The position numbers and the translations under genes are program-made. The notes beneath the pieces are model-generated. The model was not told the origin of the DNA. It searched no databases and saw nothing but the letters and a program-made list of their open reading frames with translations. Shown here in pieces: positions 9,065 to 64,000 of a stretch of DNA of 64,000 nt. This DNA is from a virus (lineage: Duplodnaviria; Caudoviricetes), in the IMG/VR virus record IMGVR_UViG_3300016649_000355. One strand, written 5' to 3'. The number at the start of each line of letters is the position of its first letter. The first letter of the stretch is position 1.

Positions 9065-9072
9065 TATTTAGT
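9065..9072 (-). promoter_or_regulatory. Late promoter box (ACTAAATA), 6 nt before the portal ATG
   Basis: Box overlapping the tape-measure stop codon; no SD before ATG 9058. Confidence 0.65.
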
Positions 9073-12708: not shown

Positions 12709-12730
12709 ACTAAATATTATTATATTTAGT
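12709..12730. promoter_or_regulatory. Palindromic pair of divergent late promoters (ACTAAATAT-tatt-ATATTTAGT)
   Basis: Perfect 9-bp inverted repeat, each arm an ACTAAATA box, between divergent genes. Confidence 0.75.
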
Positions 12731-12765
12731 ATTGGTATAATAGCCATTTTAACAAAGGAACACAA

Positions 12766-13596
12766 ATGTCAATAGCTCACAATCCATTAAAACAATATTT
12801 CCGTAGACCTTCAGTTTATTTTAAATTACCTAGCGGAGGAAAAGGGTATAAATCAGGGGTAGTCAACATCCCTGAATCAGGGGAACTTCCTGTTTATCCA
12901 ATGACAGCGATTGATGAGATTACTACTAAAACTCCTGACGCATTGTTTAATGGTACTGCAATGGTAGATATTATTAAAAGTTGTGTCCCTGATATCAAAG
13001 ATCCCTGGGCCATTACCTCAGTAGATTTAGATGCAGTATTAATCGCTATCAGGGCAGCAGGTGGCGGTTCGGATCTAGAGATCGAATCAGAATGTCCGTC
13101 ATGTAAAGAAGTTTCAAGTTATGGTGTAAATCTGTCTGCAATGTTAGCAAACATGAAAGCAGGAGATTATGATAAAGATTTAAATATTCATGACCTCAGT
13201 ATTAAGTTTAGACCATTAACTTATAAAGAACTCAATCAAGCAGGACTTGCTCAATTTGAGATACAAAGAGTATTTTCCGGTATCGAAAGGATTGAGGATG
13301 AAGAAGAGCGAAACAAAAAAACACAAGACGCACTAAAATCAATCACATTACTTACCATGCAAGTCCTAGCACAAGCGGTTGAAGTGATCAGGACCCCAGG
13401 AACAGAAGTCACTGAACAAGAATTTATTGTCGATTTCCTACAAAATTGCGATAAAAATACATACATCGCTATCAGAGACTTTCATTCTAAACTTAAAGAA
13501 CAAACTGAATTAAAACCATTGCGCATCAAATGCGTAAGCTGCACACATGAGTATGATCAACCATTTACATTGAACCCAAGCGATTTTTTCGGTTAA
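12766..13596 (+). CDS. Baseplate hub / tape-measure assembly chaperone (T4 gp26-like)
   Basis: NPLKQYFRRP..LPSGG, VYPMTAIDE, DLDAVLIAIRAA motifs; CPSC and CVSC Zn ligands; AAAGGA SD; divergent from tape measure. Confidence 0.8.
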   Translation: MSIAHNPLKQYFRRPSVYFKLPSGGKGYKSGVVNIPESGELPVYPMTAIDEITTKTPDALFNGTAMVDIIKSCVPDIKDPWAITSVDLDAVLIAIRAAGGGSDLEIESECPSCKEVSSYGVNLSAMLANMKAGDYDKDLNIHDLSIKFRPLTYKELNQAGLAQFEIQRVFSGIERIEDEEERNKKTQDALKSITLLTMQVLAQAVEVIRTPGTEVTEQEFIVDFLQNCDKNTYIAIRDFHSKLKEQTELKPLRIKCVSCTHEYDQPFTLNPSDFFG

Positions 13597-19108: not shown

Positions 19109-19116
19109 ACTAAATA
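19109..19116 (+). promoter_or_regulatory. Late promoter box (ACTAAATA) at the head of the baseplate operon
   Basis: Box upstream of TAAGGA SD and ATG 19139. Confidence 0.65.
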
Positions 19117-46000: not shown

Positions 46001-49000
46001 TGAATTTACTGATGGATTATTGAACCAATTAAATGGTGTAACTTACGCAAATACAGGTAGCTTTTCTGGATTTGTCGCAGTAGGATCAAGCCAAGAGTAC
46101 GATTATTCGTCTGGATTAACTCAAATAGTCGATAGAAATGCAATATTGATCAGTAGCACCGGTGACACATGGAACAAACTTTCTAGTATTTCACCACAAA
46201 CTTTTTATACCGTAACTTTTGGTAACGGAATTTTGCTTGCAGCAGGAGAAAACAATGTAAAATACTATAGCCAAAACGGAACAACTTGGTTCGGCATTAA
46301 TCAAACTGAAGTTTTAAGTGTAAATACCGCAACAAATGTTATAGTTGTAACATCTACTATTGGTTTTTCAGTCAATGATCCTATAAGAATTACTTCAGCC
46401 TTTAGCAATTTAAGTGTAGGCACAACATATTATATCCAAGCAGTAGTTAATTCTACTCAGCTCCGTGTATCATCTAGTTCAGGTGGTTCAGCAATAACTC
46501 TGGCAGTTGGCGATCCGTCGACAAGAACATGGGTAAATGCGTATCCTATGGGCGAGACACTAAAAGATTTAATTTATGCGAATTCGATCTTCATGGCAGT
46601 GGGACAAAATGGATTTATAGAAACTAGCCCAGATGGTATATTTTGGACATCGCAAACTAGCGGTGTAGCTGAAAATCTTAATGCCATAACCTACAACTCC
46701 GCAGAGTCTTTATTTGTTGTTGTTGGAGACAACAACACTATCATTCAAAGTTCTGATAACGGAGTGACCTGGACAAGTAGTTCAGTGTTTGTTCAAGATC
46801 CCACAGTATATGATGTAGTTGGAAATCCATTTCAATCAGGATATGGCCCAGAGGAATTAGTGCCAGGATTTGTATCAGACAATTTGACTATGATCGTGAA
46901 TACGAGACCGGGAACGAATTGGGATGTGACTGAGTATGCGCATGTAGGTTATAAAGTTTTTTCACTAGAACTGATTCCTTTAGATGCTATTCAAACTGTT
47001 TATAGTTTTGCAGGATATGTACAAACTCCTGCACTAATATATGTGGCAATCATCGACGGTACAACTATGTTGAGCAATTCAATATATGAGCCCCAATACA
47101 CTATAGATTGGATAAATTTCACTATCACCTTAAATTCGCCTCTGACATTTACGCCTGTTACTGATAAATTAAGAATTGACATTTATGAGGTTGGTAATGG
47201 CGATCAGTTAGTAAAGTCTAACAGTGAGACTGACCCGCTACGATACAACAGTGTGACCGGATTTACAGAAATTTATTTAAATTGTAATTATAGCGATACT
47301 ATTTTTAACGGCGGCGGCGCGATTCGTCCGGGAACTGAGCCTAGATATGTAAATGCAATACAAACAGATTCAATTGATGATACAATTTTGTGTGATTCAG
47401 TGGATAGTTTCTTATTAAATTCTGCTATAAAATTTCAAGGAAATGTTTTCGGGGGACTACAAGAAGATACAACATATTATGTAAAAACTATTAGCACATT
47501 TACCAATAAGATCACCGTATCTACTAGTTACAATATCGGATCAGGAACAGCGGGTCCAACATATCAAGTAACAACTAACAGTGGCTCTATGACAGCGGTA
47601 ATTCAAACTGGATCAGGTCTAGTATGGTCAGACCCCTTTGTGTACCATAATGGCAACAAATTAGTATGGGGTATTACTGGTACAGTAACAAGGACAAAAA
47701 ATACCAACAACAGGCTCACTGTTAATACTACTTCTGGTTTAGCAGCGAATGATCCAATAACATTCTCTTCAAATATATTTGGTGGTATAAGCCCTAATGT
47801 TACTTACTATATCAGCCAGGTAATCGATAATAACGAAATTACTATCTCTACCTCCCCCGGCGGGGCAGAGGTCGTATTAACCGCTGCCACCGGTAGCGCA
47901 CAGTTTATAACAAATGATTTTGCTATAGGAATACAACCTAACAGTGTCCAGGCAAAATTGATATTCGTGGATAGTTATGTACAAGGGACTGACTATTTGG
48001 TATACTCGATATTCGGAGAGACGACTCCTGATCAATATGGATATACTATTCCAACCGCTCAACTAATCGCTTCTACGGGAAGTAACACTTATGCTTTAAC
48101 CAATTATCTGGGTGGTGCTAATGAATATAATGCAATAGTAGAAGTCGATGGAATAAGACAAACTATATCACAGTATGACATTAATGTAAACAACAGCAAT
48201 ATTACTTTTGTATCACCGCCCCCGGCAAACTCTATAATAACAGTAACAACCTATAATCTAACTGATAGACAATACCTAAATACTCAATATGGAATCACAG
48301 GATCACCTGGGGCAGCATCGTTGACATTGAATATAGGAAATTCTGTGCATGAACCGGGTTATGATACTTTGGTAACGGCGGGGTTTTTTATTATAGGAAC
48401 AGAGTATATCATAGAAACGATCGGAACCACAGACTTTACTTTGATCGGCGCAGCAAGTAATACAGTTGGTATAGCATTTGTTGCTACTGGGGCAGGTACA
48501 GGTACAGGTACAGCAGCAATTGGTTGGTCTAGTGGCGTGATAACTACTGCTGGATCATTTACAATAGGTGGTAATTATGAGATATTGACAGTAGGTACTA
48601 CAGATTTTACTCTGATAGGTTCTCCTGATAACAACATAGGTACAATGTTTACAGCTACCGGAGTAGGTTCGGGAACAGGAACAGCAGGTACTGGGCTATT
48701 TGGGCCGGGGCCCGACTATCTTGAATTGTCTTCAGGTAATACCAGTAATTTGAATATCAATGATACTATTACATTCTCGTCACCCACGATAGGTGGACTA
48801 GTAGCCGGAGTTACATATTATGTTGTAGAAATTATAGACTCTACTAAATTTGCGATTTCGACACTAGTAGGCGGTGATCCTATTACATTGACGACTGAAT
48901 CGGGCGCGATGACGGGGTCTACTAACCCATTAAGTGTCTCTGATGTTTCTGGGGTAAACAATACAATCACTCCGCCACTGGATGTAGTTAGTGTCACTGC

Positions 49001-50572: not shown

Positions 50573-50722
50573 ATGAACAAAACTACGGACAATAAAGAAA
50601 AAGAGATAAAACAATCCGATAATAAACCAAATGAAATCGGAGGATTTTATTTTTCATCCCATATCAAAATTACTGATCCCAATACAAAAGAAGTTTTAGT
50701 ACAAAAAAGAGGCGATAACTGA
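50573..50722 (+). CDS. Small unannotated protein (49 aa, MNKTTDNK...KITDPNTKEVLVQKRGDN)
   Basis: Below ORF-track cutoff; GATAAATA box at 50561-50568, 4 nt before ATG; TGATG overlap with the next gene. Confidence 0.7.
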   Translation: MNKTTDNKEKEIKQSDNKPNEIGGFYFSSHIKITDPNTKEVLVQKRGDN

Positions 50723-51342
50723 TGTCAGTCATAACATTATCTTATAAGATAGAAGGATTTTTAAAAATATTTGACCCTAATAATGGCGAAATATTTGTAA
50801 ACAAGAAAAATGCTATCAATTATGAAAATATGTCAGAGGCTATAGCTGACACATTAAGCAGTCGTGGATATGGTGAAATATATGAGATGGCATTTGGTAA
50901 TGGCGGAGCATCGGTAGATCAGACGGGAGTCATAACATATCTACCACCAAATACTACTGGACAGAATGCAGCATTATATAATCAAACTTATGCGAAAATT
51001 GTAGACGATACTAGCGTATTTAATCTAGACCCCACTAGAAATAAGATGACAGTATCTCATATTACCGGTCGATTATATACAGATATTTTAGTTCAGTGTT
51101 TGTTGGATTACGGCGAGCCGGCAGGACAAAGCGCATTTGATAATAGCACTCAAACAGATTCAACCTATGTATTTGATGAGTTGGGGCTGCTTGCAAATTA
51201 CGGTACTAATAATGATGGCAATGTTATAACAAGATTATTAACGCATGTTATTTTTCACCCAGTACAAAAATCACTGAATAGGCAGATACAAATTGATTAT
51301 ACCGTAAGAATTCAGAGCTTAACTAATTTAGTTACGATTTAA
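50722..51342 (+). CDS. Virion structural protein, baseplate or fibre-attachment type
   Basis: Beta-rich (FDELGL, THVIFHPVQKS..IQIDYTVRI); within the structural operon. Confidence 0.55.
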   Translation: MSVITLSYKIEGFLKIFDPNNGEIFVNKKNAINYENMSEAIADTLSSRGYGEIYEMAFGNGGASVDQTGVITYLPPNTTGQNAALYNQTYAKIVDDTSVFNLDPTRNKMTVSHITGRLYTDILVQCLLDYGEPAGQSAFDNSTQTDSTYVFDELGLLANYGTNNDGNVITRLLTHVIFHPVQKSLNRQIQIDYTVRIQSLTNLVTI

Positions 51343-51343
51343 A

Positions 51344-51351
51344 GATAAATA
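51344..51351 (+). promoter_or_regulatory. Late promoter box (GATAAATA)
   Basis: Intergenic, upstream of GGAG SD and ATG 51375. Confidence 0.6.
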
Positions 51352-51374
51352 ATAAAGATAGCGGAGCGACAAAA

Positions 51375-52589
51375 ATGGCATATACGATTATAAAAAGTGA
51401 CGGTACAGTATTAACTACCATTGCGGATGGTACAATTAATACTACAAGTACATCACTTGGATTACCAGGAAGAAACTATGCAGGATATGGACAAACACTA
51501 GACACAAACTTTGTTCATATCACTGAAAATTTTGCAGATTCTTCTCCTCCCCCAAATCCATTAGCGGGTCAATTATGGTATAATACAAATGATACTACAC
51601 TCTATGTCTGTCCCACAGATGGAGAATCTAACGCCAATGCATGGACAGCACTAGCACAAGCAGGTGGAGGCGCAAATACTACCTTCGGTGGAATAACAGT
51701 GACGGGAAATGCTTCCGCTAATAATTTTACCGCTGTTAACAATTTAACAGGTAATGCACTTTCAGTATCTTTCGCTACAATTTCTGCTAATGCTAATATT
51801 GGAAATGCAAACATCACTTCAGCAACTATCGGCACTTTGACTACTACTGCTATAACGGCAGGTTCTGCAGGAACATCAGGCACGCTTACCGGTACTTGGT
51901 CAGTAAATGGCACTGTAAGTGGCAATGGCATAGTGATGACTGCGGGTAATATTTACATCAACAACAGTGGCAATATTTACGGAATTAAAACAGACAAGTA
52001 TATGTACGCGAACGGAGATCCTATCTCATTTGCAGGTACATACAGTAATAGCAATGTGGCAGCATATATGCCTGTTTATGGTGGAAATATACTGTCTACG
52101 CAGATTCAAGCTACCGTTCTCACAACCGGGGCTAACACAACACCCGGCAATATAACTGGTAATTGGACACTAACTACAGGATCAAGACTTCAGGCAACAT
52201 ATGCTGACCTTGCAGAAAGATTTGAAGCAGATGAAGCATATGACGCAGGAACTGTCGTAGAGTTAGGCGGTGCTAAAGAAATTACAGCAGTCAAGTATGA
52301 TTTAAGTGAAGATGTTTTTGGTGTGGTTTCTGATACTGCTGCATACCTAATGAATGCAGGTGCAGGAAACGATCAGACTCATCCACCTATAGCGGTTACA
52401 GGGCGTGTCAAGGTAAAAGTTACCGGTCCCATAGCTAAAGGTCAAAGATTAGTAAGTGCAGGCGAAGGTAGGGCAAGAGCAGCAAATCCCGGTGAAGCAA
52501 CAGCATTTAACACCATAGGTCGTTCATTAGAAGAAAAACACACGATTGACACAAGCCTCATTGAGGCCATAGTCACGATCAAAGGATAA
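51375..52589 (+). CDS. Tail fibre-like protein with C-terminal intramolecular chaperone / autocleavage (Peptidase_G2-like) domain
   Basis: Asn/Thr-rich shaft; C-terminal YADLAERF...GTVVELGG...GVVS...GRVKVKV...KGQRLVS pattern. Confidence 0.7.
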   Translation: MAYTIIKSDGTVLTTIADGTINTTSTSLGLPGRNYAGYGQTLDTNFVHITENFADSSPPPNPLAGQLWYNTNDTTLYVCPTDGESNANAWTALAQAGGGANTTFGGITVTGNASANNFTAVNNLTGNALSVSFATISANANIGNANITSATIGTLTTTAITAGSAGTSGTLTGTWSVNGTVSGNGIVMTAGNIYINNSGNIYGIKTDKYMYANGDPISFAGTYSNSNVAAYMPVYGGNILSTQIQATVLTTGANTTPGNITGNWTLTTGSRLQATYADLAERFEADEAYDAGTVVELGGAKEITAVKYDLSEDVFGVVSDTAAYLMNAGAGNDQTHPPIAVTGRVKVKVTGPIAKGQRLVSAGEGRARAANPGEATAFNTIGRSLEEKHTIDTSLIEAIVTIKG

Positions 52590-52599
52590 AGGAAAAAAC

Positions 52600-53553
52600 A
52601 TGAGTTACGCACAGTTTGGATTAATTGAAGCTACAGATTTCAACGCATTGGTAGGTGGAAACCCCACAACAACTGCCAATACCTTGAATGCAACTTGGGC
52701 GACAGGTGGCGGCACTGCAGGGTATGGTCAAACTGCGGTAGCGAATGTGACTGCAGGAAATAGTGTAGTAGCAACTGGTCAGTGGAATGCATTAGTATCT
52801 AATACTGCAAGTGCGGCAACACATCAAGGCTCATCTATTACATCCGTGACCGCTCCTGTAGCAGGAAACACTGTTACATACTTAAGTGCTATCCCTACAA
52901 ATTTGCAAACGATTTATGCAAGTAGATTAAACGCAGCAACACAGGGATCCACTACATCTAATACCGCGACATTTGGTAGTACATGGAGTTCATTGTTAAC
53001 ATTTACACATACTGCTACATTTGCTAACGGTGATGCAGCCCGTTACTTCTTTAATTCAGGTGGTCAATTAGCGATGACAGTGTCTCACCCAAATGGTACA
53101 GGAATCAATCTACTATTCAATAACTTAGCTTCTAATGTTGGTACTGTAGTCATGAGCGCGCCATCTTCTGGATCGGTTAGCATAGCAGGAACATCATATA
53201 ATGGCATCACTAAGATAGGCGGTGGCGGCAACGCCCCCACTATCAGTGCTAATACTGGTTATTTTGCATTAACAACATCTAATGTAACGGCATTTACTCA
53301 AACCGCATCTACGGGCCCGGCGGGCTATCTATCAACCTTCATTCGATTTATAGTCAAATCTAACGGCACTCAAGGATCAAATGGTGACGCCGGTTCTGTA
53401 ATTACTATCTATACTATTTGGGATGAAGTACCCGACGGTTTAACAGTGTCATCGGGAACCGCTACAACAATGACAGTAAGACCCCCCGAGACTACAAATC
53501 TAGCAAATTCTTGGGGAACAATCACATTAGCCGGAAGCGTGGCAGGTTCCTAA
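52600..53553 (+). CDS. Thr/Gly/Ala/Ser-rich virion structural protein
   Basis: Composition, AAGGA SD, operon position; DAARYFFNSGG motif. Confidence 0.6.
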   Translation: MSYAQFGLIEATDFNALVGGNPTTTANTLNATWATGGGTAGYGQTAVANVTAGNSVVATGQWNALVSNTASAATHQGSSITSVTAPVAGNTVTYLSAIPTNLQTIYASRLNAATQGSTTSNTATFGSTWSSLLTFTHTATFANGDAARYFFNSGGQLAMTVSHPNGTGINLLFNNLASNVGTVVMSAPSSGSVSIAGTSYNGITKIGGGGNAPTISANTGYFALTTSNVTAFTQTASTGPAGYLSTFIRFIVKSNGTQGSNGDAGSVITIYTIWDEVPDGLTVSSGTATTMTVRPPETTNLANSWGTITLAGSVAGS

Positions 53554-53579
53554 TTAAATTTAAATCAGTCTTTGTATCT

Positions 53580-53587
53580 ATTAAATA
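53580..53587 (+). promoter_or_regulatory. Late promoter box (ATTAAATA) at the head of the GT/radical SAM cluster
   Basis: Intergenic, upstream of TAAGGAG SD and ATG 53604. Confidence 0.55.
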
Positions 53588-53603
53588 CTCTAAGGAGTGA
53601 TTT

Positions 53604-53915
53604 ATGGATACAAAGACTTTAATTTTAGAATCAAAAGCTAGATTTGCTCACAATTCAGCTAAAGCTTACCTTAGAGAAAAATACGAAAACAAATTGTTTC
53701 TGGCGGATCAAGGAGGACTTTGGAAAGCCGATATTCAAACCATATCCTTCTTAGAAAGCAATCATACACAAGTTACCGAAATTGTTTTGATAGACACTTT
53801 TAATAATCCGGTAAAAGTGAATGCATCCGCTCTACTAAATAAACTTCAAGACCTATACCACACTGTCATGGAAGAATGGCATAAAGAATGGAAAGAGTTA
53901 GAAGGTAAAAGATGA
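53604..53915 (+). CDS. Hypothetical protein (103 aa), first gene of the modification cluster
   Basis: Strong SD; ATGA overlap with the next gene. Confidence 0.75.
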   Translation: MDTKTLILESKARFAHNSAKAYLREKYENKLFLADQGGLWKADIQTISFLESNHTQVTEIVLIDTFNNPVKVNASALLNKLQDLYHTVMEEWHKEWKELEGKR

Positions 53916-54718
53916 GTAAAGGGGTCATTCTTTTTGCGTTCAACTCTCCCAAATATGACTATTTTGCTATGGCAAAATACTCGGCTAAAAGAATCAATCA
54001 TTTTTTAAATCTACCAGTAACTTTAATTACTGATAAAGAATCATATGATCCCGATTCGACTGAGTTTGATAAAGTATTTTTAACAGAACCAGACAAAACA
54101 AACAAACGAGATTGGGGTCTGTGGTTCAACAAAGGTAGATACAAGGCATACGAATATAGTCCATATGATGAAACTATATTGTTAGATACTGATTATATGG
54201 TTTGTTCTGACAAATTATTGAAAACTTTTGATATTTACAATGATTTTTGTTGTCATGGAGATACGGAATTTTTAATGCAACCCAATGCTCCACAAGAAAT
54301 ATTAAGTGCATATAGTCATAAAACTTTATGGGCCACCGTGGTCACATTTAAAAAAACATCGAGAGCTAAACAAATTTTTGAATGTTTAAAAATGGTTCAA
54401 GAAAATTATGATCATTATGCTAATATACATAGTTTTATAAGTGGCACATACAGGAACGATTACGCGCTTACTTTGGCACTTAGGATAGCCAATGGGCAGA
54501 CTATTTTAGACAAAGATATTATTCCGTGGAATCTATTACACTTGGGGAAAAATACAACTATTTTCGCCAAAAGCCAACATCCATTCAATACAGAATATAC
54601 TATATTGTACGATAATTGGCAAAGGGGAAAAATTAAAAAAGAATATATCGACATCAAAGATTGCGATTTTCATGTCATGAACAAAGACAATTTTACGGAG
54701 TTGATAAAAGATGAATAA
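53912..54718 (+). CDS. GT-A-fold (GT8-like) glycosyltransferase
   Basis: KGVILFAF..PVTLITD; SPYDETILLDTD (DxD). Confidence 0.65.
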   Translation: MSKGVILFAFNSPKYDYFAMAKYSAKRINHFLNLPVTLITDKESYDPDSTEFDKVFLTEPDKTNKRDWGLWFNKGRYKAYEYSPYDETILLDTDYMVCSDKLLKTFDIYNDFCCHGDTEFLMQPNAPQEILSAYSHKTLWATVVTFKKTSRAKQIFECLKMVQENYDHYANIHSFISGTYRNDYALTLALRIANGQTILDKDIIPWNLLHLGKNTTIFAKSQHPFNTEYTILYDNWQRGKIKKEYIDIKDCDFHVMNKDNFTELIKDE

Positions 54719-55535
54719 AGGATTTGTAGTTTTGGCACAAAATACAGATCAGGTAAATTATGTTAAGTGTGCTGAAGCATTGGCCATGAGCCTATATAAT
54801 GTCATGCCTGAAGCTCATGTTACATTAATATCTGATAATATCACATCGTCAGATTATTTTGATAATGTTGTTTCATTACCATACGGCGATCTCGCAAAAA
54901 ATAGTGATTGGAAGTTAATCAATGATTGGCAAGTGTACGAAGCCAGTCCCTATGAATACACGATAAAATTAGAGGCCGATCTGTACATACCTAGATCAAT
55001 CGAACATTGGTGGGAAATTTTGAAACCACATGATTTGATCATATCGACTAATATAAGAAATTTTCACAATGAGTTGTCAAATGTGAGGGCTTATCGTAGA
55101 TTCATAGACGATAATAAGTTGCCGGATACATATAATGCGATAACTTATTTTAAAAAATCAGATAAAGCCAAAAAATTCTTTGATACCGTAAAACAAATTT
55201 TCAATGACTGGGAACAAATAAAATCAAATTTTAAATGTAATCCTGACGAAAAAGCCTCTACCGATTTCGTTTATGCTATCGCAGCACATATAATCGGAGA
55301 AGAGAATTGTACATTGCCGTTGTTTAAAGATATGTCAATGATACATATGAAGCAATATATCAATAATCTACCATCCGAAGATTGGACTGATATTTTTGTA
55401 TACGAAATATTACCCAACGCACTAAGAGTGAACACTATCCCTCAGATGTATCCATTTCACTATCATGCCAAGCATTTTTGTGATACTTTAATAAAAGAAA
55501 CAGAATCATGGAAAATAAAGAAGAATACATATTAA
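54711..55535 (+). CDS. GT-A-fold (GT8-like) glycosyltransferase paralogue
   Basis: KGFVVLAQN..VTLISD; SPYEYTIKLEAD (ExD); alignable by eye with the preceding gene. Confidence 0.62.
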   Translation: MNKGFVVLAQNTDQVNYVKCAEALAMSLYNVMPEAHVTLISDNITSSDYFDNVVSLPYGDLAKNSDWKLINDWQVYEASPYEYTIKLEADLYIPRSIEHWWEILKPHDLIISTNIRNFHNELSNVRAYRRFIDDNKLPDTYNAITYFKKSDKAKKFFDTVKQIFNDWEQIKSNFKCNPDEKASTDFVYAIAAHIIGEENCTLPLFKDMSMIHMKQYINNLPSEDWTDIFVYEILPNALRVNTIPQMYPFHYHAKHFCDTLIKETESWKIKKNTY

Positions 55536-55861
55536 TTTGGGAAGCACCCAAGATAGTTCCACCTGAGTTTCGTTTGTATTATGATGACACTGGAAAAGTA
55601 TTATGTTATACTTGCGAGAAGCTAGAAGGTAATTATATTGTAATTGACAGCATTACCTATGCTGAAGCAAGGCCCGATATAAGAGTAGTTAACGGAAAAA
55701 TATCTACGGTATCCCCTCATTTAGTGATTTCAAAATTGGTCATGGATGATACTCAAGGTAAGTCGTGTTCGATTGATAATATAAGTATCATAGTTGAAAA
55801 TAATGAAGTTGAAACAAAAAAATGGAAACTAAAAACATATGAACTCGTCCAGCATAATTGA
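55508..55861 (+). CDS. Hypothetical protein (117 aa)
   Basis: Open frame overlapping both neighbours, typical codon usage. Confidence 0.7.
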   Translation: MENKEEYILIWEAPKIVPPEFRLYYDDTGKVLCYTCEKLEGNYIVIDSITYAEARPDIRVVNGKISTVSPHLVISKLVMDDTQGKSCSIDNISIIVENNEVETKKWKLKTYELVQHN

Positions 55862-56792
55862 TGTTGCAGATTTAGATTGCATATATCTAAGTTATGATGA
55901 GCCGCAGAAGGAAGAATTTTGGCTCAAGATCAAGAACATGGTGCCGTGGGCAAAGCGCGTTGACGGTGTGAAAGGTAGCGATGCCGCACACAAAGCGGCA
56001 GGAGAGGCTAGCGACACTGAACGATTCATTTTGATCGATGGTGATAACATGCCTGATGAATCTTTTTTTAATATGCAATTAGACTTCACTGATAAAGATC
56101 CTAGTTATCATAAAGCTCAGTTTCGATGGAAGGCAGTGAATTCAATCAATGGATTAAGATACGGCAACGGTGGTATGAGTTCATGGACTAAAACTTATGT
56201 CAGCGAGATGAAAACACATGAACATCAGGATGAAGGTGATTTATCCAGGGTGGCTGATTTCTGTTTAGATAGCAAAGATAATTTATATTGGGCTATGTAC
56301 GACTGTTATAGCACGACTTATCCGAACTATACACCATTTCAAGCGTGGCGTGCAGGTTTCCGTGAAGGTGTAAAAATGGTGTTAGATAGGGGTCATAGAC
56401 CAACTGTCGATGATTTTAAAGAGCGTGTAGCTAGCAGGAATTTAAACAATTTAACGATATGGCACAATATAGGGACAGATGTACAGAATGGTTTCTGGGC
56501 TATATATGGTAGTCGATTGGGTACTTACATGACATTATTGACTGATTGGGATCACACCAATGTTCAATGGTTTGATAACTATTTAGAGATGTGGGAAGAA
56601 CATAAAAACAAGAACCCTGAAGAAGAAGCAAATAGATTGGGCGTGTCATTGCATGATAAACTGGGATTGCCTATGTCTATAATGAATAAAGAACAGAGCA
56701 AGTTTTTCAAGCGACACTATAAAGCAGATTTTCATAATCTAGGTCCACTAGTTACTGAGATGGAAGTTATCCGTAGAATCGAAGGTTGGTAA
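55839..56792 (+). CDS. Putative GT-A-like nucleotide-sugar-using enzyme
   Basis: DCIYLSYDEP, RFILIDGD (DxD after a hydrophobic strand). Confidence 0.5.
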   Translation: MNSSSIIDVADLDCIYLSYDEPQKEEFWLKIKNMVPWAKRVDGVKGSDAAHKAAGEASDTERFILIDGDNMPDESFFNMQLDFTDKDPSYHKAQFRWKAVNSINGLRYGNGGMSSWTKTYVSEMKTHEHQDEGDLSRVADFCLDSKDNLYWAMYDCYSTTYPNYTPFQAWRAGFREGVKMVLDRGHRPTVDDFKERVASRNLNNLTIWHNIGTDVQNGFWAIYGSRLGTYMTLLTDWDHTNVQWFDNYLEMWEEHKNKNPEEEANRLGVSLHDKLGLPMSIMNKEQSKFFKRHYKADFHNLGPLVTEMEVIRRIEGW

Positions 56793-58183
56793 TGTCAGAC
56801 GAACAAAAACGAATTAAAGATATAAAAATCAAAATTGAGAATGAGGTTGGACCTACCTTTTGTCTAGCCAAATGGCATCATGTTACTATGTATCTGCAAT
56901 CAGGAGAAACGCATAGCTGTTATCATCCTCGCCCACACAAGATTCCATTGAATGAATTGCAGAATAATCCTTCTGCATTGCATAACACACAAGAAAAGAA
57001 AATGGAACGCAAGTTGATGCTTGAGGGCGGCAAGCCCGAAGGATGCCAATACTGCTGGAACATTGAAGCGATGGGTCCCGATTACATCAGTGATAGACAT
57101 ATCAGGAACGGTAGCATCTTTACCGAAGAAAGATACAATCAGTGTAAAGATAGCTGGACAGTTGATGTTAATCCAGAATATATTGAGATCAATTTCGGTA
57201 ACGAGTGTAATTTTAAATGCGGTTATTGTCATCCCAAATATAGCACAAGCTTTTATAAAGAGATCGAAACACACGGACCAGTAACATCTGTCAAGAACCA
57301 TCGTTGTGACATCGACTGGATGAAACTTTATCAGCGTGAAGAAGAGAACCCATATGTTGATGCGTTCTGGGAGTGGTGGCCTGAATTAAGGAAAACATTA
57401 AACATCATGCGTGTGACTGGGGGAGAACCCACATTGCACAAATCTACATGGACATTACTAGACAAGATCGACCAGGATCCCATGCCGTGGTTAGAACTAA
57501 ATATTAATAGTAATTTAGGAACAAAGCCTGTGTTGATCGAAAGACTGGCAGCAAAAGTAAAAAAATTAACATCAGAAAATAAAATAAAAAACTTTAAATT
57601 ATTTACTAGCATGGATACTTGGGGAGATAGGGCAGAATACATACGCACCGGATTAGATTTAGAATTATGGGAACATAATTTTCATACATATCTTCAAGGT
57701 ACCGACAGCCCCATAACTTTCATGATTACTTTTAATATTTTCAGTGTCACTACATTTAAATCATTATTAGAGAAAATGTTAGAATGGCGAAAGCAGTATG
57801 GATGGTATGATGATATCAAATCACACAGGGTAAGATTTGACACACCTTATCTGCGCGATCCTATACAATATGATATGAATATCTTACCTAAAGAAGAATT
57901 CATGCCTTATATGCATGAAGCATTAAAATTCATGAAAGATAATTTGAATGATGATGCAAGCGATAAGTTTACCAGTATTGAATATGAAAAATTCAAGCGT
58001 GTGGTAGACTACATGGCAGAAACAGTTTATCCCGAAGAAAGATTGATCGAAGGCCGAAAAGATTTTTATAATTGGTTTAATGAATTAGATGAAAGAAGGG
58101 ATAATGATATGTTATCTGTATTTCCAGAAATGATTAAATTTTATAGATTATGTCAAGAAACAAATCAACTAAACCCAAACTAA
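56792..58183 (+). CDS. Radical SAM protein 1 with N-terminal Cys cluster (twitch-like)
   Basis: CNFKCGYC (CxxxCxxC), TGGEP; N-terminal FCLAKW..SCYH..GCQYCW. Probable start ATG 56792 (TAATG). Confidence 0.88.
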   Translation: MSDEQKRIKDIKIKIENEVGPTFCLAKWHHVTMYLQSGETHSCYHPRPHKIPLNELQNNPSALHNTQEKKMERKLMLEGGKPEGCQYCWNIEAMGPDYISDRHIRNGSIFTEERYNQCKDSWTVDVNPEYIEINFGNECNFKCGYCHPKYSTSFYKEIETHGPVTSVKNHRCDIDWMKLYQREEENPYVDAFWEWWPELRKTLNIMRVTGGEPTLHKSTWTLLDKIDQDPMPWLELNINSNLGTKPVLIERLAAKVKKLTSENKIKNFKLFTSMDTWGDRAEYIRTGLDLELWEHNFHTYLQGTDSPITFMITFNIFSVTTFKSLLEKMLEWRKQYGWYDDIKSHRVRFDTPYLRDPIQYDMNILPKEEFMPYMHEALKFMKDNLNDDASDKFTSIEYEKFKRVVDYMAETVYPEERLIEGRKDFYNWFNELDERRDNDMLSVFPEMIKFYRLCQETNQLNPN

Positions 58184-59442
58184 ACTTAGATAAAAGCTTT
58201 AATCTCACTGAGAGCAAAACTTTTTGTATGGCGCCATGGGTGCATCTACATACTACACCGACTGGTCTAGTAGCGCCCTGCTGCATATCTACTGCCACTT
58301 CAACAGAACACGGATTTGGAAATTCTAAGGATAATACTATCGAAGAATTGATAAATGTCGAGGAGATGAAAAAATTACGGGTAGATATGTTAAGCGGTGT
58401 GGAAAATATCGAATGTAATGGGTGTTACGCGCATGAAAAAAATAATATCAAGAGTTTTCGACAAATGCACAACGAAGAGTTGGGTAAATTTTACGATAGT
58501 GATGTTTTAGAAAATACCAATAAAAACGGTTCCTTAAAAAAATTCACTATGCGATATTTTGATATGCGGTTTAATAACATATGTAATTTTAAATGTCGAA
58601 CCTGTGGCCCCTTTTTCAGTAGTCAATGGGAACAAGAAAATCTTAAAAATAATGTAGTTTGGGCTAAACCAGTACCGAAAAACAATAAGCCTGAATTTTT
58701 AGAAGAATTATTAACACATGTAGATTACTTAGATAGCGCATATTTTGCCGGCGGTGAACCATTGATCACTGATGAGCATTATGTGATGCTTGAAGAAATG
58801 ATTAAAAAGAATCGAACTGATATCAAGTTAAGGTATAATACAAATCTGAGCAATTTAAAATTTAAAGATAAAGATTTACTGTCATTATGGAAGCACTTTA
58901 AAAACCCTGTAGATGTTTATGCTAGTATAGATCATTTTGGGGAAAAGGCAGAATATATAAGGCATGGCACAGACTGGGCCACTGTAGAAGAAAATTTTCA
59001 GAAAGTAAAATCCACCAAATTCATAAAAGTTTATATTAATACTGTTTTAAGTGTTTTTAATTACATGACATTACATGAATTCTTTCAATATTTGATTGAC
59101 AAAAAATTTTATAATCCTAGAGATGGTGCTTTTACAGTATATAAAATGTCTACTCCTGCACATTTTGCAGCACATATAATTCCGGAAAAACTTAAGTTAA
59201 TAGGAAAAGATAATATTTCTAAATTACACGATTATATGAAAATTCAAAAATTTAAAAAAGAGCAGTTGAAACAAATCGAGGATATCAATGCATGGGTATG
59301 CTCAACCGATACTTGGGACCTGCATCAGGATGCATTCCGTTTAGAAATTAACCGTGTGGATAAAATACGGGGCGAAAGATTTAGTAAAGTTTTTCCAGAA
59401 CTATCTGAGTTGGTAGACAGAAAAAGGTTTTTTCCTTTATGA
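58150..59442 (+). CDS. Radical SAM protein 2 with N-terminal twitch-like domain
   Basis: CNFKCRTC, AGGEP; FCMAPW..PCC..ECNGCY. Confidence 0.9.
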   Translation: MSRNKSTKPKLNLDKSFNLTESKTFCMAPWVHLHTTPTGLVAPCCISTATSTEHGFGNSKDNTIEELINVEEMKKLRVDMLSGVENIECNGCYAHEKNNIKSFRQMHNEELGKFYDSDVLENTNKNGSLKKFTMRYFDMRFNNICNFKCRTCGPFFSSQWEQENLKNNVVWAKPVPKNNKPEFLEELLTHVDYLDSAYFAGGEPLITDEHYVMLEEMIKKNRTDIKLRYNTNLSNLKFKDKDLLSLWKHFKNPVDVYASIDHFGEKAEYIRHGTDWATVEENFQKVKSTKFIKVYINTVLSVFNYMTLHEFFQYLIDKKFYNPRDGAFTVYKMSTPAHFAAHIIPEKLKLIGKDNISKLHDYMKIQKFKKEQLKQIEDINAWVCSTDTWDLHQDAFRLEINRVDKIRGERFSKVFPELSELVDRKRFFPL

Positions 59443-60674
59443 AATTGAACAAAACATTTTTACTTGAAGAAAGTAAAGTATTTTGCATGTTTCCATGGCT
59501 ACACTTGAATGTTACCCCTAAGGGCGATATTTATCCTTGTTGTAGTAATAACTATACTACCCCTTTTGGAAATACGAAAGAGATCACATTAAAGCAGGCT
59601 TTTAATAGTCCCGAGATGAAACAATTGCGACTTGACATGCTCAATGAGCGTCCTAATAAAATTTGCGATTTCTGTTATAAACACGAAGAAGCGGGACCAC
59701 ATAGTTTTAGAAATTATAGCAAAGAGCAATTCGCTAAACATTTTGATGAATTAGTTCCCACTACACAACAAGACGGTACAGTTGATCAATTTAAAATGCA
59801 CTATTTTGATATCCGTTTCAGTAATATATGTAACTTTAAATGCAGGACCTGCGGTTCAGAGTTTAGTAGTCAGTGGGCAGCAGAGATGCAAAAAAATTAT
59901 GATCCAAAACATCCTATAGTGATTCATGCAGATGATGGTAAAGGAAAATTATTAGAAGAAGTTCTAACTCATATCGAACACATTGACCTTGCCTATTTTG
60001 CAGGGGGCGAACCATTGATCACTGATGAGCATTATGTGATGCTTGAAGAGATGATCAGAATGAAAAGAACTGACATCACTCTAAGGTACAACACGAACGC
60101 TAGCAATATTAAATATAAAAATCATGATGTATTAGACTTATGGAAACATTTCAAACGGATAGAACTAAGTTGTTCAATCGACCATTATGGTGATAGAGCC
60201 GAATATCTACGAAAGGGAACTGACTGGGGAAAAGTAGAAAGCAATTTGCTTACTTTTCGTGATCTTGATTTTGTGATATTTCAGATGAACACTGTGTTTA
60301 GTTTATATAATTACTTAACCATTGGTGAATTTTATCAGTACTTGAAAGATAAAAATATTGTTCGCAGGGAAGATTGGTATCATAGTCTATATCTTGCGGT
60401 GCATCCCAGCTATTATTGTGCTAAGAGTTTACCAAAAGAATTAAAATTACAAGCAGAACAAAAAGCATTAAGATATAGTGATGCAAACAAAGATGACGGA
60501 ACATCATTGTCAAGATTAATCACTGATGCGGTCAATTTTGCCAAAGACGGTCATGGTTGGCAAGATAACCGCGAAAAGTTCTTGATGCATACTAAATCTA
60601 TTGATAGAATACGGGATGAAAGTTTTTGGAAAACATTCCCTGAATTAAATAAACTTGCTGACCTACTGGAGTAA
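59439..60674 (+). CDS. Radical SAM protein 3 with N-terminal twitch-like domain
   Basis: CNFKCRTC, AGGEP; FCMFPW..PCC..ICDFCY. Confidence 0.9.
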   Translation: MKLNKTFLLEESKVFCMFPWLHLNVTPKGDIYPCCSNNYTTPFGNTKEITLKQAFNSPEMKQLRLDMLNERPNKICDFCYKHEEAGPHSFRNYSKEQFAKHFDELVPTTQQDGTVDQFKMHYFDIRFSNICNFKCRTCGSEFSSQWAAEMQKNYDPKHPIVIHADDGKGKLLEEVLTHIEHIDLAYFAGGEPLITDEHYVMLEEMIRMKRTDITLRYNTNASNIKYKNHDVLDLWKHFKRIELSCSIDHYGDRAEYLRKGTDWGKVESNLLTFRDLDFVIFQMNTVFSLYNYLTIGEFYQYLKDKNIVRREDWYHSLYLAVHPSYYCAKSLPKELKLQAEQKALRYSDANKDDGTSLSRLITDAVNFAKDGHGWQDNREKFLMHTKSIDRIRDESFWKTFPELNKLADLLE

Positions 60675-60676
60675 TA

Positions 60677-61948
60677 ATGGATACAATCACAACCGAAAAC
60701 CTTGTTAAACATGGAAAACATTTTTGCGTACTGCCCTGGGTACACTTTCATAGCTGGCCTGATGGCAGGGTAATGCCTTGTTGCGTGGCAGATAGTAATA
60801 TGCCTGTCGCCGATCTCAAAGATGATGAGTCTATCATTCAAATGATGAATAGCAACGATTTTAAAAAGTTGCGTGTAGCCATGATGAACGATGAACCAGT
60901 AGAAGCCTGTAAAAGATGCTATGATCTAGAACTCATGGGTACCTGGACTATGCGTCAGAGCCATAACAAACGCAAGGGTCTAGAGTATGTCAAGTATATC
61001 AGTGAAAATACCAATGAAGATGGGAGTCTCAAGAAGTTTGAGATGAAATATATGGATCTACGATTCAGTAGCATTTGCAACATGAAATGTCGTAGTTGTG
61101 GACCCGGCTGCTCAAGCCAGTGGGCGCAAGAATTCGTAGATAGAATGGGGGTAGATGAGTACGAAAAATATTTCAAGACACGCAAGATCGTTATCAACAC
61201 ATCCGAAGAAATGAATTTCATGACAAAACTCAAGCCATACTTACAAGATGTCACTGAAGTTTATTTTGCGGGCGGTGAGATCATCATCACCCCTGAGCAT
61301 TATGAGTGTCTTGATTATTGGATCGAGAACGGAATCAATGAAACAATTGAGTTAACTTACACAACAAACTTTAGCACCCTCAAAGGATATAAAGATAAAG
61401 ATTTACTTGAGTATTGGAAAAAATTCCCTAAATTAAAAATTTGGGCAAGCTTAGATGCGCATGGCAAAGTTGCAGAGTGTATCCGTAAAGGCACTGACTG
61501 GGAAAAGATCGAAAACAATATCAAACTTGTAAAAGAGCAAGTGCCACACGCAGAATTTCAGATCACCCCCACAATTAGTTTGTGGAATGTATTTACCTTT
61601 CCTGACTTTTTTGATTACATGATCGATAAAGGATACATCGATACTAAATCAAGCCCTAGATTTAATCTCGCTACTAATCCGTGGTATGCAAATATCATGA
61701 TCATGCCTGCTCATGTCAAGCGTAGATTAGCTGAACTTTATAGAGTCTATCAAAATAAGTATAAGGACAATGTTGATATACATAATGGTTTCAAGATGAT
61801 CATCTATAATCTCACTGTGGGAGATGAAAATAAAGGTGGTATACAGGAATTTATAAAGTTCAACGAAGAGTTAGACGGTTTTAGAAATGAAAAATTAGAA
61901 GATATTATTCCTGAACTTAAAGAGGTGTTTCATTGGGCAAGAAATTAA
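60677..61948 (+). CDS. Radical SAM protein 4 with N-terminal twitch-like domain
   Basis: CNMKCRSC, AGGE; FCVLPW..PCC..ACKRCY. Confidence 0.9.
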   Translation: MDTITTENLVKHGKHFCVLPWVHFHSWPDGRVMPCCVADSNMPVADLKDDESIIQMMNSNDFKKLRVAMMNDEPVEACKRCYDLELMGTWTMRQSHNKRKGLEYVKYISENTNEDGSLKKFEMKYMDLRFSSICNMKCRSCGPGCSSQWAQEFVDRMGVDEYEKYFKTRKIVINTSEEMNFMTKLKPYLQDVTEVYFAGGEIIITPEHYECLDYWIENGINETIELTYTTNFSTLKGYKDKDLLEYWKKFPKLKIWASLDAHGKVAECIRKGTDWEKIENNIKLVKEQVPHAEFQITPTISLWNVFTFPDFFDYMIDKGYIDTKSSPRFNLATNPWYANIMIMPAHVKRRLAELYRVYQNKYKDNVDIHNGFKMIIYNLTVGDENKGGIQEFIKFNEELDGFRNEKLEDIIPELKEVFHWARN

Positions 61949-62913
61949 TAGCAATCGAAGCTCCGCAGCCCTACTTAGCCGTTACCTGGCAAGTCAATAA
62001 TTTTTGCAATTACAAATGTAGCTATTGCAATCCAGGCAATTGGGGAGGAACTGATCGCAATGAAGGTAATCTAGACCTTTATCTTGCTAACCTAGAAACG
62101 ATCATCAATCGATATAGGCATTCGGGATACAAAAACTTTAAATTCTTTTTTAGTGGCGGTGAGCCCACAGCCTGGAGTAACTTCATTCCGATTTGTGAAT
62201 GGATATATAATACATTACCAAGGGCCACTTTAGCAGTCAATACTAACTTAAGCAGGCCATTGGCATGGTGGCAAAAACATTATCATCTATTTGACGATGT
62301 GGTTGCAAGTTTTCACATTGAGTTTGCTGATAAAAAAAGATACGAAGAGAACAGTATATTTTTGTGTGATAAGGTAAACTATCTTTCTACAAAGATGCTG
62401 ATGCATGAAGAAAGATTTTGGGAAGTAGTCGAGTATGGAAATTATCTCAAAACAGTGATGCCTAACTACTTCTTAGAATGGACTCCCCTGTTTGATGAAA
62501 TGAGTGTAAATACTGGTCCATGGCATTACAAAGATCCTGCCAAAGAACAATGGCTGAAAGAACACATTACTGAAATTCAGCAAACCAAACGCAAGCCCAT
62601 GAAGCGCACCACACTTACTGTAAGTTACAACAAGTATGATGATGGGTCTAGTGAAGTGTGCAACAGCAATGAAGTTATCGTCGCCGGGAATAATTTTTTC
62701 AGTGGATGGAATTGTAATGTAGGTGATTGTATTTTTATAAATCCGGTAGGGGAGATGAGTCTAGCAAGCTGCGGTATGGGCGGTTATGTAGGTCATATTT
62801 TAAATGATATTAATAGGGTAGGTCCTAAACAAATCATTTGTGAAAAAGAACATTGTCACTGCGGTACAGATATCATTATTCCTAAATTTAATTCTGATTT
62901 TGTTACCCAATGA
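61933..62913 (+). CDS. Radical SAM protein 5 with C-terminal Cys cluster
   Basis: CNYKCSYC, SGGEP; C-terminal WNC..SC..ICEKEHCHC; TTG start with GAGGTG SD. Confidence 0.88.
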   Translation: MGKKLIAIEAPQPYLAVTWQVNNFCNYKCSYCNPGNWGGTDRNEGNLDLYLANLETIINRYRHSGYKNFKFFFSGGEPTAWSNFIPICEWIYNTLPRATLAVNTNLSRPLAWWQKHYHLFDDVVASFHIEFADKKRYEENSIFLCDKVNYLSTKMLMHEERFWEVVEYGNYLKTVMPNYFLEWTPLFDEMSVNTGPWHYKDPAKEQWLKEHITEIQQTKRKPMKRTTLTVSYNKYDDGSSEVCNSNEVIVAGNNFFSGWNCNVGDCIFINPVGEMSLASCGMGGYVGHILNDINRVGPKQIICEKEHCHCGTDIIIPKFNSDFVTQ

Positions 62914-64000
62914 ATAAGATATATGTAGCATATAGTTGGATAGGTCCCACTGGCCCACTCTCTAATAATCAAGTACCCACAATTCTTACTTTAGCAGATA
63001 ATTATAATGAAACAAATATAATATCTGATAAAAATGATCGCGAGGATACATGGGAAAGAATTTTTTCGCAGGGGCCAGACTTGTATTCTTTAAAACCTTC
63101 GGCTACTCTTGAACAAAATGATATTTTTGTTTTTCCATTCAAGCTTAATGTAAGAACACCGTTATCAAGTTATTTTTCATACAATAATGGTTTGCTAGAA
63201 TATAGTTTTACCGGCGGTGATGTCAACGCAAAAGTAAGAGAATTTAATGGCTATTTTGTATTTGATTTCAGAGATGAAGCTTCAGTTAGCGAACAATTTT
63301 TTTCAGCAATACACTCTTATTTTAAAATGCACGGTATGCTCGCGTATAAAGTGATATTTTTAACAGGTGCTATAAATGTTGTAGAATTATATGAAAAATT
63401 TTGTAGCAAGCATAATTTTACGCCGGGGGAGCAATCTAGAATTAAATTTATTCCTTGCCCTGACTATGAACCATTCAATAAACAGATATGTCATAAGACG
63501 ATACATACTTTTACAGAACCTGAATATAATATAGAAGTAGTCCCGAGTAAATTTTTTCTATGCTGGAATCGCAGATTTAGGAAGCATAGAATCACACTTT
63601 GCCTGGCTATGGAAAAATCAAAATTGATTGAGAAAAGTTACCTAAGCCTTGCTAGAAAAGACGCTGCGTTCGACAAAGACATCACAGAATTTATACATGA
63701 TATTCCACCGGAAATGAATATTGATGAAAATACTAAAAATGAATTAATTAAAAGATTGCCTTTGATTTTAGATGAGGAATCTAATGTTTCTGAAATGTGT
63801 ACGGATTCCTTATATAAGACGAGACCTTTTTATAGTGATAGTTTAGTTAGTATCGTCACTGAAACAAATTTTGATTTGCCCATATTAACATCTACAGAAA
63901 AAACATTTAAACCGATGCGCGAAAAACATCCGTTTATATTAGTTGCTTCCTCGGGAGCATTAAAAGCCTTAAAAAGTATAGGATTTAAAACATTCGATAA
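62910..64000 (+). CDS. Partial CDS, possibly GT-B-like (TEK motif) protein
   Basis: Not in the ORF track. ATGA overlap with rSAM5; open to the window edge (MNKIYVAYSWIGP...FLCWNRRFRKHR...SIVTETNF..STEKTFKP..HPFI). Family assignment is weak. Confidence 0.7.
   Translation, partial: MNKIYVAYSWIGPTGPLSNNQVPTILTLADNYNETNIISDKNDREDTWERIFSQGPDLYSLKPSATLEQNDIFVFPFKLNVRTPLSSYFSYNNGLLEYSFTGGDVNAKVREFNGYFVFDFRDEASVSEQFFSAIHSYFKMHGMLAYKVIFLTGAINVVELYEKFCSKHNFTPGEQSRIKFIPCPDYEPFNKQICHKTIHTFTEPEYNIEVVPSKFFLCWNRRFRKHRITLCLAMEKSKLIEKSYLSLARKDAAFDKDITEFIHDIPPEMNIDENTKNELIKRLPLILDEESNVSEMCTDSLYKTRPFYSDSLVSIVTETNFDLPILTSTEKTFKPMREKHPFILVASSGALKALKSIGFKTFD

Follow-up and report, generated by a model that had tools for sequence, protein, structure and literature searches.

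Glycosyltransferase genes among the structural genes of phages have been described before. T4-like pelagimyophages and cyanomyophages carry a host recognition cluster, a large variable island in the structural module that holds tail-fibre genes and many glycosyltransferases (PMC7029224). That study dealt with marine phages of SAR11, favoured modification of the host O-chain, and mentioned radical S-adenosylmethionine (SAM) cassettes in the cluster in passing without analysing them (Zaragoza-Solas et al., 2020; PMC7029224). In mycobacteriophages, according to the summary of Freeman et al. (2023) given in PMC12619734, transferase genes stand beside structural genes and the glycans are found on virion proteins. 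In this work, we analysed a 64,000-nt stretch of DNA (hereafter the window; IMG/VR record IMGVR_UViG_3300016649_000355) from an uncultured freshwater jumbo myophage, and we describe a cluster of glycosyltransferase (GT) and radical SAM genes at its right end that opens a longer operon.

We read this operon as a soluble glycan pathway with late-type control, set in the tail-fibre part of the structural module, whose glycan would probably be carried on the virion; the reading as a whole is tentative, and we give it somewhat less than an even chance. Its parts differ in strength. A pathway that builds a glycan and tailors it by radical chemistry is well supported by predicted GT-A folds, nucleoside diphosphate (NDP)-sugar genes, and homology to the twitch domain of BtrN, so that this part of the virion glycan pathway proposed in the initial annotation stands; the other part, virion proteins as the target, we still infer from gene position and promoter type. 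The substrates and reaction types named below for the operon enzymes are predicted throughout. The cluster has the following features:

53581-53588, + strand: late-promoter-like box TTAAATAC, ahead of the first gene's ATG at 53604
53592-53597, + strand: Shine-Dalgarno sequence AAGGAG, ahead of the same ATG
53604-53915, + strand: 103-aa protein without family match, evenly conserved, globular-looking, without Cys (from the alignment; nonsynonymous divergence well below synonymous)
53912-54718, + strand: GT-A-like transferase 1, 268 aa, with invariant D92-x-D94 (alignment, hhalign)
54711-55535, + strand: GT-A-like transferase 2, 274 aa, Nucleotid_trans/GT8-like (Atlas model)
55508-55861, + strand: 117-aa protein without family match, evenly conserved (alignment)
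55839-56792, + strand: GT2-like GT-A transferase, 317 aa, with invariant D67-G-D69 (AF2, Foldseek, VIA)
56786-58183, + strand: radical SAM 1 (rS1), N-terminal twitch domain (NF033640, 312 bits)
58150-59442, + strand: radical SAM 2 (rS2), N-terminal twitch domain, a variable slot (NF033640, 367 bits)
59439-60674, + strand: radical SAM 3 (rS3), N-terminal twitch domain (NF033640, 375 bits)
60677-61948, + strand: radical SAM 4 (rS4), N-terminal twitch domain (NF033640, 356 bits)
61933-62913, + strand: radical SAM 5 (rS5), 326 aa (generic radical SAM matches only)
62910-64000, + strand: X439 protein, the first 363 of 439 residues, truncated by the window end and complete on an identical contig

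The initial annotation had described at least 11 same-direction and mostly overlapping genes, headed by a TAAATA box and with no terminator recognised, and our analysis agrees on each point. The 11 open reading frames (ORFs) at 53604-64000 all run in one direction on the + strand, and nine of the ten junctions overlap by 4-34 nt, the remaining one being a 2-nt gap. The longest non-coding stretch of the cluster is the 50-nt leader (53554-53603), and the overlapping junctions leave no room for hidden genes. A single terminator-like site was called on the + strand, weak, located within a gene, and fewer than in shuffled sequences; none was found between the genes of the cluster. Compared with their orthologues, the ten complete genes have nonsynonymous divergence (pN) of 0.06-0.30, whereas synonymous divergence (pS) is saturated at 0.63-0.95. 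With pN so far below saturated pS, these are real genes under purifying selection.

The box and the Shine-Dalgarno sequence occupy the same position in all 21 related contigs, within a spacer that has otherwise diverged; the sequence of the box is CTAAATAC in 20 of these relatives and CTTAAATAC in contig L050. The strict T4 late box TATAAATA was not found ahead of the cluster, so the term late-type box is used here by analogy. The heptamer CTAAATA also lies directly 5' of four other gene starts in the structural part of the window, at 9065-9071 (- strand), 12710-12716 (+), 12723-12729 (-), and 19110-19116 (+), and is a candidate late-promoter consensus for this phage. The two heptamers at 12710 and 12723 stand back to back in the divergent spacer 12710-12766, and the heptamer is under-represented overall (11 found versus 19 expected). 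The conserved box and the structural-gene context suggest that the cluster is expressed late.

Three GT-A-like proteins had been proposed, and all three hold at the level of the fold, two through structure models and one through a profile link. For the 317-aa protein, the AlphaFold2 (AF2) model has a pLDDT of 76, all Foldseek matches are GT-A/GT2 enzymes with probability up to 1.0, and VIA gave Z 8-9.9 over ~140 residues against GT2-type enzymes. Two giant-virus proteins resemble this model, namely, PBCV-1 A64R (Z 8.4, root-mean-square deviation 3.4 Å over 138 residues) and Mimivirus R699 (Z 8.0), at sequence identities of only ~7-11%; since many cellular GT-A enzymes score equally well or better, the likeness is one of fold and points to no specific relationship. 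A PDB profile search with the 317-aa family yielded noise only. The gene is always found directly ahead of rS1, in ~50 contigs and in the cultured Ralstonia phage RsoM2USA.

The 274-aa transferase was assigned from its Atlas model (pTM 0.90), the structural neighbours of which are PF03407/PF01501 clusters at a TM-score of 0.67; an AF2 model built on a nine-sequence alignment had a pLDDT of 46 and was set aside. Only D90 of its E-A-D motif is invariant, and against PDB profiles the family has only a weak match to glycogenin (E 0.2-0.7). The 268-aa family had no match in the PDB profile search, and its place in the GT-A fold comes from an hhalign link to the 54711-55535 family (99.6%, E 1e-23), which makes the two distant paralogues.

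The five radical SAM enzymes with auxiliary Cys residues that had been reported were all recovered, four of them at 312-375 bits against NCBIfam NF033640 (N_Twi_rSAM, twitch domain-containing radical SAM protein; 398-position model, cut-off 170 bits) and the fifth by a CX3CX2C motif with five Cys toward its C-terminus. The first four match NF033640 over the full model and are members of the family, whereas rS5 scores 25 bits and is not. The cluster and SAM motifs are intact in all five. The start of rS1 is probably the ATG at 56792, and the public gene call is 463 aa. The enzymes rS1-rS4 are old paralogues, 20-46% mutually identical, within one operon. The variable position is that of rS2, which is at most 56% identical to its counterparts in relatives; L002 and L012 have no gene in this slot, and in L001 a 605-aa B12-type enzyme takes its place. 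Across 13 diverse aligned members, rS3 has invariant C16, C34, C76, C79, C131, C135, C138, and G189-G-E191, and further polar residues are invariant besides these Cys and the GGE. In rS5, the CX3CX2C motif is formed by Cys25, Cys29, and Cys32, and Cys261, 280, 303, 308, and 310 are invariant in all 19 phage and Bdellovibrionota orthologues. NF033640 is catalogued without a known reaction, and our literature search found no paper that names NF033640 or N_Twi_rSAM, nor any on the chemistry of the enzyme family.

In a search of PDB with the family profile, BtrN (4M7S/4M7T) was the sole significant solved relative (E 1.3e-5). BtrN is the 2-deoxy-scyllo-inosamine dehydrogenase of butirosin biosynthesis, and its twitch domain is homologous to the N-terminal domain of the NF033640 enzymes. 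Residues 11-93 of the query align to BtrN residues 163-245, the auxiliary-cluster twitch domain, and Pfam places the SPASM match (residues 16-92) ahead of Radical_SAM (126-312). Because the N-terminal residues align to a C-terminal domain of BtrN, the auxiliary domain is a permuted twitch, and as the auxiliary Cys number only four, it is a twitch rather than a full SPASM domain. The two designs differ in order and size: NF033640 enzymes carry the twitch domain first and have 411-465 aa, whereas BtrN has its core first and a C-terminal twitch domain within ~250 aa; the former exceed BtrN by ~150 residues and have a helical region at the C-terminus. The Cys spacing C-x17-C-x41-C-x2-C in the NF033640 enzymes presumably resembles that of the BtrN ligands. 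The radical SAM core of BtrN is not detectably closer to the NF033640 cores than are those of other superfamily members.

The same enzymes might act on protein directly, installing cross-links, epimerisations, or oxidations on fibre proteins in the manner of ribosomally synthesised and post-translationally modified peptide (RiPP) or anSME systems, with the transferases serving a separate purpose. For most SPASM/twitch enzymes that have been characterised, the substrates are peptides or proteins (reviews PMC8326336 and PMC5682303), and the enzymes of the cluster adjoin fibre-type proteins rich in Ser, Thr, and Gly. However, Pfam and NCBIfam scans found no PqqD/RRE-type domain in the five enzymes, RiPP maturase models scored far below their cut-offs on them, and both the four-Cys auxiliary domain and its best solved relative, the sugar enzyme BtrN, speak against this. 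No RiPP precursor had been found in the initial annotation, and as far as sequence allows, that holds: the 103-aa and 117-aa ORFs are unlike precursors, being evenly conserved and Cys-poor, with no leader/core split or Cys-rich tail, and a hidden peptide gene would find no intergenic space. We consider direct protein modification very unlikely.

The last gene of the window belongs to a family, here X439, that comprises 13,325 clusters at 50% identity and is unnamed; it has no Pfam or PDB profile match even at E 10. Some members are fused to an NDP-sugar dehydrogenase or to a short-chain dehydrogenase/reductase (SDR) epimerase, and one fusion of this kind is the 774-aa protein of this phage, whose C-terminal half matches X439 with an hhalign probability of 100% (E 1e-46). 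These fusions tie the family to nucleotide-sugar chemistry, and the product of the 62910 gene is probably a nucleotide-sugar-dependent transferase. A resemblance to GT10 was indicated by an Atlas feature score of 0.78, which serves as a lead only. The conserved motif TET...EK.FKP...HPF is one we take to be GT10-like, and no match to PF00852 or to a PDB entry was found. The proposal that this gene is a further possible GT thus gains from the fusions to nucleotide-sugar enzymes, and the gene stands as a candidate GT.

The operon continues for ~16 kb past the window, as read from a public contig that shares 12,068 nt with the window at 100% identity. The whole comprises ~26 kb and 23 genes, with the part in the window as its first third. 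In order, the identical contig adds:

beyond the edge: the full 439-aa X439 product and a 438-aa paralogue
beyond the edge: SDR nucleotide-sugar epimerase/reductase
beyond the edge: 308-aa protein without assignment
beyond the edge: B12-binding radical SAM enzyme, the first of two
beyond the edge: 774-aa nucleotide-sugar dehydrogenase
beyond the edge: second B12 radical SAM enzyme
beyond the edge, L142:14631-15218: 195-aa DegT-fold fragment
beyond the edge: three proteins without assignment, then a carbamoyltransferase
beyond the edge, L144:11488-16980 (window-equivalent ~79635-85127): 1830-aa protein that closes the operon and is followed by small genes

The initial annotation had suggested a search for nucleotide-sugar genes past the right edge, and the NDP-sugar dehydrogenase, the SDR epimerase/reductase, the DegT fragment, and the carbamoyltransferase are what it returned. 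The 195-aa ORF matches LegC/PseC-type aminotransferase models only at positions 186-274 of 359, and the ORF behind it (323 aa, L142:15211-16182) lies in a different frame and has no match; the pair may represent an aminotransferase that has been split or has decayed, or else domains in a new arrangement. The 1830-aa protein has at least 10 copies of a ~66-residue repeat with the motif FDxSW(R/H)PDPxDPPYIYxFG and no Pfam match. At its C-terminus lies a domain that is homologous to the 317-aa GT2-like protein (E 7e-9) but has the DxD motif replaced.

From these parts, a route can be proposed. Activated sugars of uronic-acid or deoxy/keto type would come from the nucleotide-sugar dehydrogenase and the SDR enzyme, and the three GT-A transferases with the three X439-family domains would build a short glycan within the cytoplasm. 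The five twitch-type radical SAM enzymes would abstract hydrogen from unactivated sugar carbons, yielding oxidation, epimerisation, or deoxygenation by chemistry of the BtrN type; the two B12-radical SAM enzymes would add C-methyl groups and the carbamoyltransferase O-carbamoyl groups. A membrane segment was predicted in none of the 23 operon proteins, which means that the acceptor has to be accessible from the cytoplasm. Most probably, this acceptor would be the neighbouring fibre-type virion proteins prior to assembly. These neighbours form one block:

50722-53553, + strand: three fibre- or pin-type virion structural genes (Pfam, database matches, composition, synteny)

Their products have 206, 404, and 317 aa, and the synteny of the trio is retained in at least 20 relatives. 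The 404-aa protein has a weak Pfam match to the Peptidase_G2 intramolecular chaperone and is similar to proteins annotated as "virion structural protein" in PA5oct and as "baseplate wedge subunit and tail pin" in vB_Pa-PAC2; the 317-aa structural protein is 28% Ser+Thr. The position "behind fibre genes" given in the initial annotation is thus borne out in the sense of virion structural genes that are fibre- or pin-like.

Directly upstream of these neighbours lies a giant open frame at 31071-50558 (+ strand, 6495 codons). Its first 1800 residues show ~29% identity to "virion structural protein" genes of PA5oct-like Pseudomonas jumbo phages and of Agrobacterium phage Atu_ph07, its only Pfam matches are an FG-GAP repeat and a weak E1_FCCH hit, and we classify its predicted product as a giant fibre- or decoration-type protein. 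The nearest cultured relatives of the phage are jumbo phages of the PA5oct, Atu_ph07, and RsoM2USA type. A megablast search of the stretch against cultured phages gave no match.

In IMG/VR, 59 loci have a homologue, and near-identical DNA is present in freshwater metagenomes from several studies. The order GT2-like, rS1, rS2/rS3-type copies, rS4, rS5, X439 is kept in ~50 of the loci. Variability across relatives, which the initial annotation had proposed as a check, takes the form of a constant core with variable radical SAM and X439 copy numbers (N-terminal-twitch genes 3 to 5, X439 genes 1 to 4) and a periphery that differs between clades; in three loci, proteins of 673-793 aa end with the GT2-like domain. 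This pattern would suit a surface trait that generates diversity.

Linkage to structural genes recurs in three lineages (the clade of the window, the L013/L017/L021 clade, and RsoM2USA), in each of which a gene for a homologue of the 404-aa protein is followed by GT-A, GT-A, small ORF, GT2-like, and rS1. Cultured phages that carry the radical SAM family are few: RsoM2USA, two Vibrio phages, and a marine single-virus fragment. In RsoM2USA (MG752970), ORF353-348 encode GT-A, GT-A, a small ORF, a GT2-like protein (41% identical), rS1 (35%), and another GT2-like protein. This module adjoins ORF356, which was found in virions by mass spectrometry, and the tail sheath gene ORF359, and ORF355 resembles the 404-aa structural protein of the window. 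Away from this module, the RsoM2USA genome also encodes another rS1-type protein and a carbamoyltransferase (47% identical). Between ORF359 and ORF356 lies ORF358, of the SDR nucleotide-sugar type and 27% identical to the SDR of the cluster; in the region 209750-228673 (L145), all these genes (ORF358, ORF359, ORF356) are annotated "hypothetical." A soluble pathway without export or lipid-carrier steps, the late-type box, and the linkage to the 404-aa gene together speak for an acceptor in the cytoplasm that later becomes part of the particle.

A further reading is DNA hypermodification, in which modified bases of the phage DNA would receive sugars from the transferases and the radical SAM enzymes would then work on those sugars. 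Diverse glycans are placed on DNA by transferases of phages (Pyle et al., 2024, as cited in PMC12619734), and the solubility of the pathway fits. However, in a relative that is 95% complete and has the same cluster (G003), the one gene of the thymidylate-synthase family is a canonical ThyA (349.6 bits versus an equivalog cut-off of 327), which leaves none as a dCMP/dUMP hydroxymethylase; this comparison, made on the relative, covers the T4-type route. The cluster also lies in the structural module behind a late-type box and not among replication genes. The initial annotation had likewise ranked DNA modification below a virion target, and we hold it to be highly improbable.

Radical SAM homologues at 28-38% identity occur in many metagenome-assembled genomes (MAGs) and some isolates of bacteria. 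Phage and Bdellovibrionota sequences fall together in the rS1 clade (support 100) and in the rS4 clade (99) of the tree, whereas the rS2/rS3 clade is phage-only; the rS1 orthogroup is common to RsoM2USA and Bdellovibrionota. In Halobacteriovorax and relatives, rS4 and rS5 are followed within one operon by a short twitch enzyme, an unknown protein, rS1, and a B12 radical SAM enzyme (L148:6982-15672 in the Halobacteriovorax MAG GCA_964352405.1; the same operon in L079, L084, and L088). The operon opens with a small outer-membrane beta-barrel protein, and its B12 enzyme is 58-59% identical to that of the L001 phage. The unknown protein, of 378 aa, is unrelated to the phage transferase, X439, and radical SAM profiles. 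No transferase was called in this operon, and the phage transferase families were not found at true bacterial loci. Two contigs binned as bacterial, L075 (Legionellales MAG, 42.7 kb) and L138 (Gammaproteobacteria MED685), carry phage-type transferases and many twitch radical SAM genes in one direction and look like phage sequence binned into MAGs.

These bacterial operons bear on two further explanations. In the first, host-surface remodelling, the soluble enzymes would make unusual nucleotide sugars or lipid-independent intermediates from which the host membrane machinery builds lipopolysaccharide or capsule, so that competing phages are excluded or re-adsorption of progeny is stopped. The glycosyltransferases of the pelagimyophage host recognition cluster, in which radical SAM cassettes were noted, have been read in this way (PMC7029224), and the operon has nucleotide-sugar enzymes. 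GT2 is moreover the commonest family among the immediate bacterial neighbours of N_Twi homologues (7 of 82), a modest enrichment. However, no flippase, polymerase, priming transferase, or membrane protein is found among the 23 proteins, a cluster behind a late-type box in a structural context would act too close to lysis for much envelope turnover, and the phage transferase families are missing from the true bacterial loci. We regard remodelling of the host surface as unlikely.

In the second, the product would be a soluble glycoside or small molecule, either a tailored free oligosaccharide or an aminoglycoside-like compound, directed against the host or competitors. Aminoglycoside tailoring uses BtrN-type twitch radical SAM enzymes, GenK-type B12 C-methyltransferases (GenK/GenD1), a TobZ-type carbamoyltransferase, and DegT aminotransferases, and the repertoire of the operon mirrors this set. 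All operon proteins are soluble, and the Bdellovibrionota operon with radical SAM enzymes only would fit a metabolite pathway. On the other hand, Pfam and NCBIfam recognise no cyclitol or scaffold synthase and no exporter in the operon, its DegT ORF is a fragment of 195 aa, and the tight, repeated linkage to fibre-type genes would be left unexplained. A small-molecule product is, in our judgment, quite unlikely.

Several observations weigh against a glycan pathway aimed at the virion. The position of the cluster, which recalls the T4-like host recognition cluster, has also been read as a sign of host-surface modification (PMC7029224). The operon of rS1, rS4, rS5, and B12 type in Bdellovibrionota chromosomes has neither fibre genes nor the phage transferase families, so the radical SAM enzymes need no virion substrate as such, and the host-surface and small-molecule readings stay alive. 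The homologous cassette of Vibrio phage K566 has no structural genes visibly beside it. The likeness of the twitch domain to BtrN, moreover, does not fix the class of substrate.

The distribution of the radical SAM genes allows a bolder proposal. The set of rS1, rS4, rS5, and B12 enzymes that is common to aquatic jumbo phages and predatory Bdellovibrionota might be an oxygen-independent glycan-editing machine that rewrites ordinary sugars through epimerisation, oxidation, deoxygenation, or C-methylation, perhaps after their attachment to tail-fibre proteins, with NF033640 and X439 proteins as its catalysts. We offer this as a speculation with a small chance of being right. If true, such editing would let fibre surfaces become chemically exotic and diversify fast, with no need for a separate nucleotide-sugar pathway per rare sugar.

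If the preferred reading is right and the virion is decorated, the ~50 related contigs and many more Atlas clusters would represent a widespread form of particle glycosylation, far more elaborate than the one- or two-transferase systems of mycobacteriophages. It would provide a first function for two large uncharacterised families, NF033640 and X439 (>13,000 clusters at 50% identity), and would bear on host range, on evasion of grazers and defences, and on oxygen-sensitive Fe-S chemistry during infection in freshwater. The minimal version beside the tail genes of RsoM2USA, a phage with a latent period of 270 min (PMC8504454), makes the question testable at the bench.

Compared with known systems, the operon has enzyme classes in common with aminoglycoside clusters, which likewise combine twitch and B12 radical SAM enzymes, a carbamoyltransferase, a sugar aminotransferase fold, NAD-dependent sugar dehydrogenases, and transferases. 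Unlike those clusters, it has no Pfam or NCBIfam match to a cyclitol synthase, a resistance gene, or an exporter, and it is phage-borne, late-type, and set among fibre genes. The mycobacteriophage systems share the placement of transferases beside structural genes; as summarised in PMC12619734 (citing Freeman et al., 2023), they have one or two transferases, with no radical SAM, B12, or carbamoyl tailoring mentioned there, and they modify the C-termini of capsid and tail-tube proteins. The host recognition cluster of pelagimyophages and cyanomyophages has the same layout as the locus described here, where fibre genes and transferases likewise form a variable island in the structural module. 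The two differ in that the freshwater members described in that study lack radical SAM genes (PMC7029224), whereas the island reported here is from freshwater and has them.

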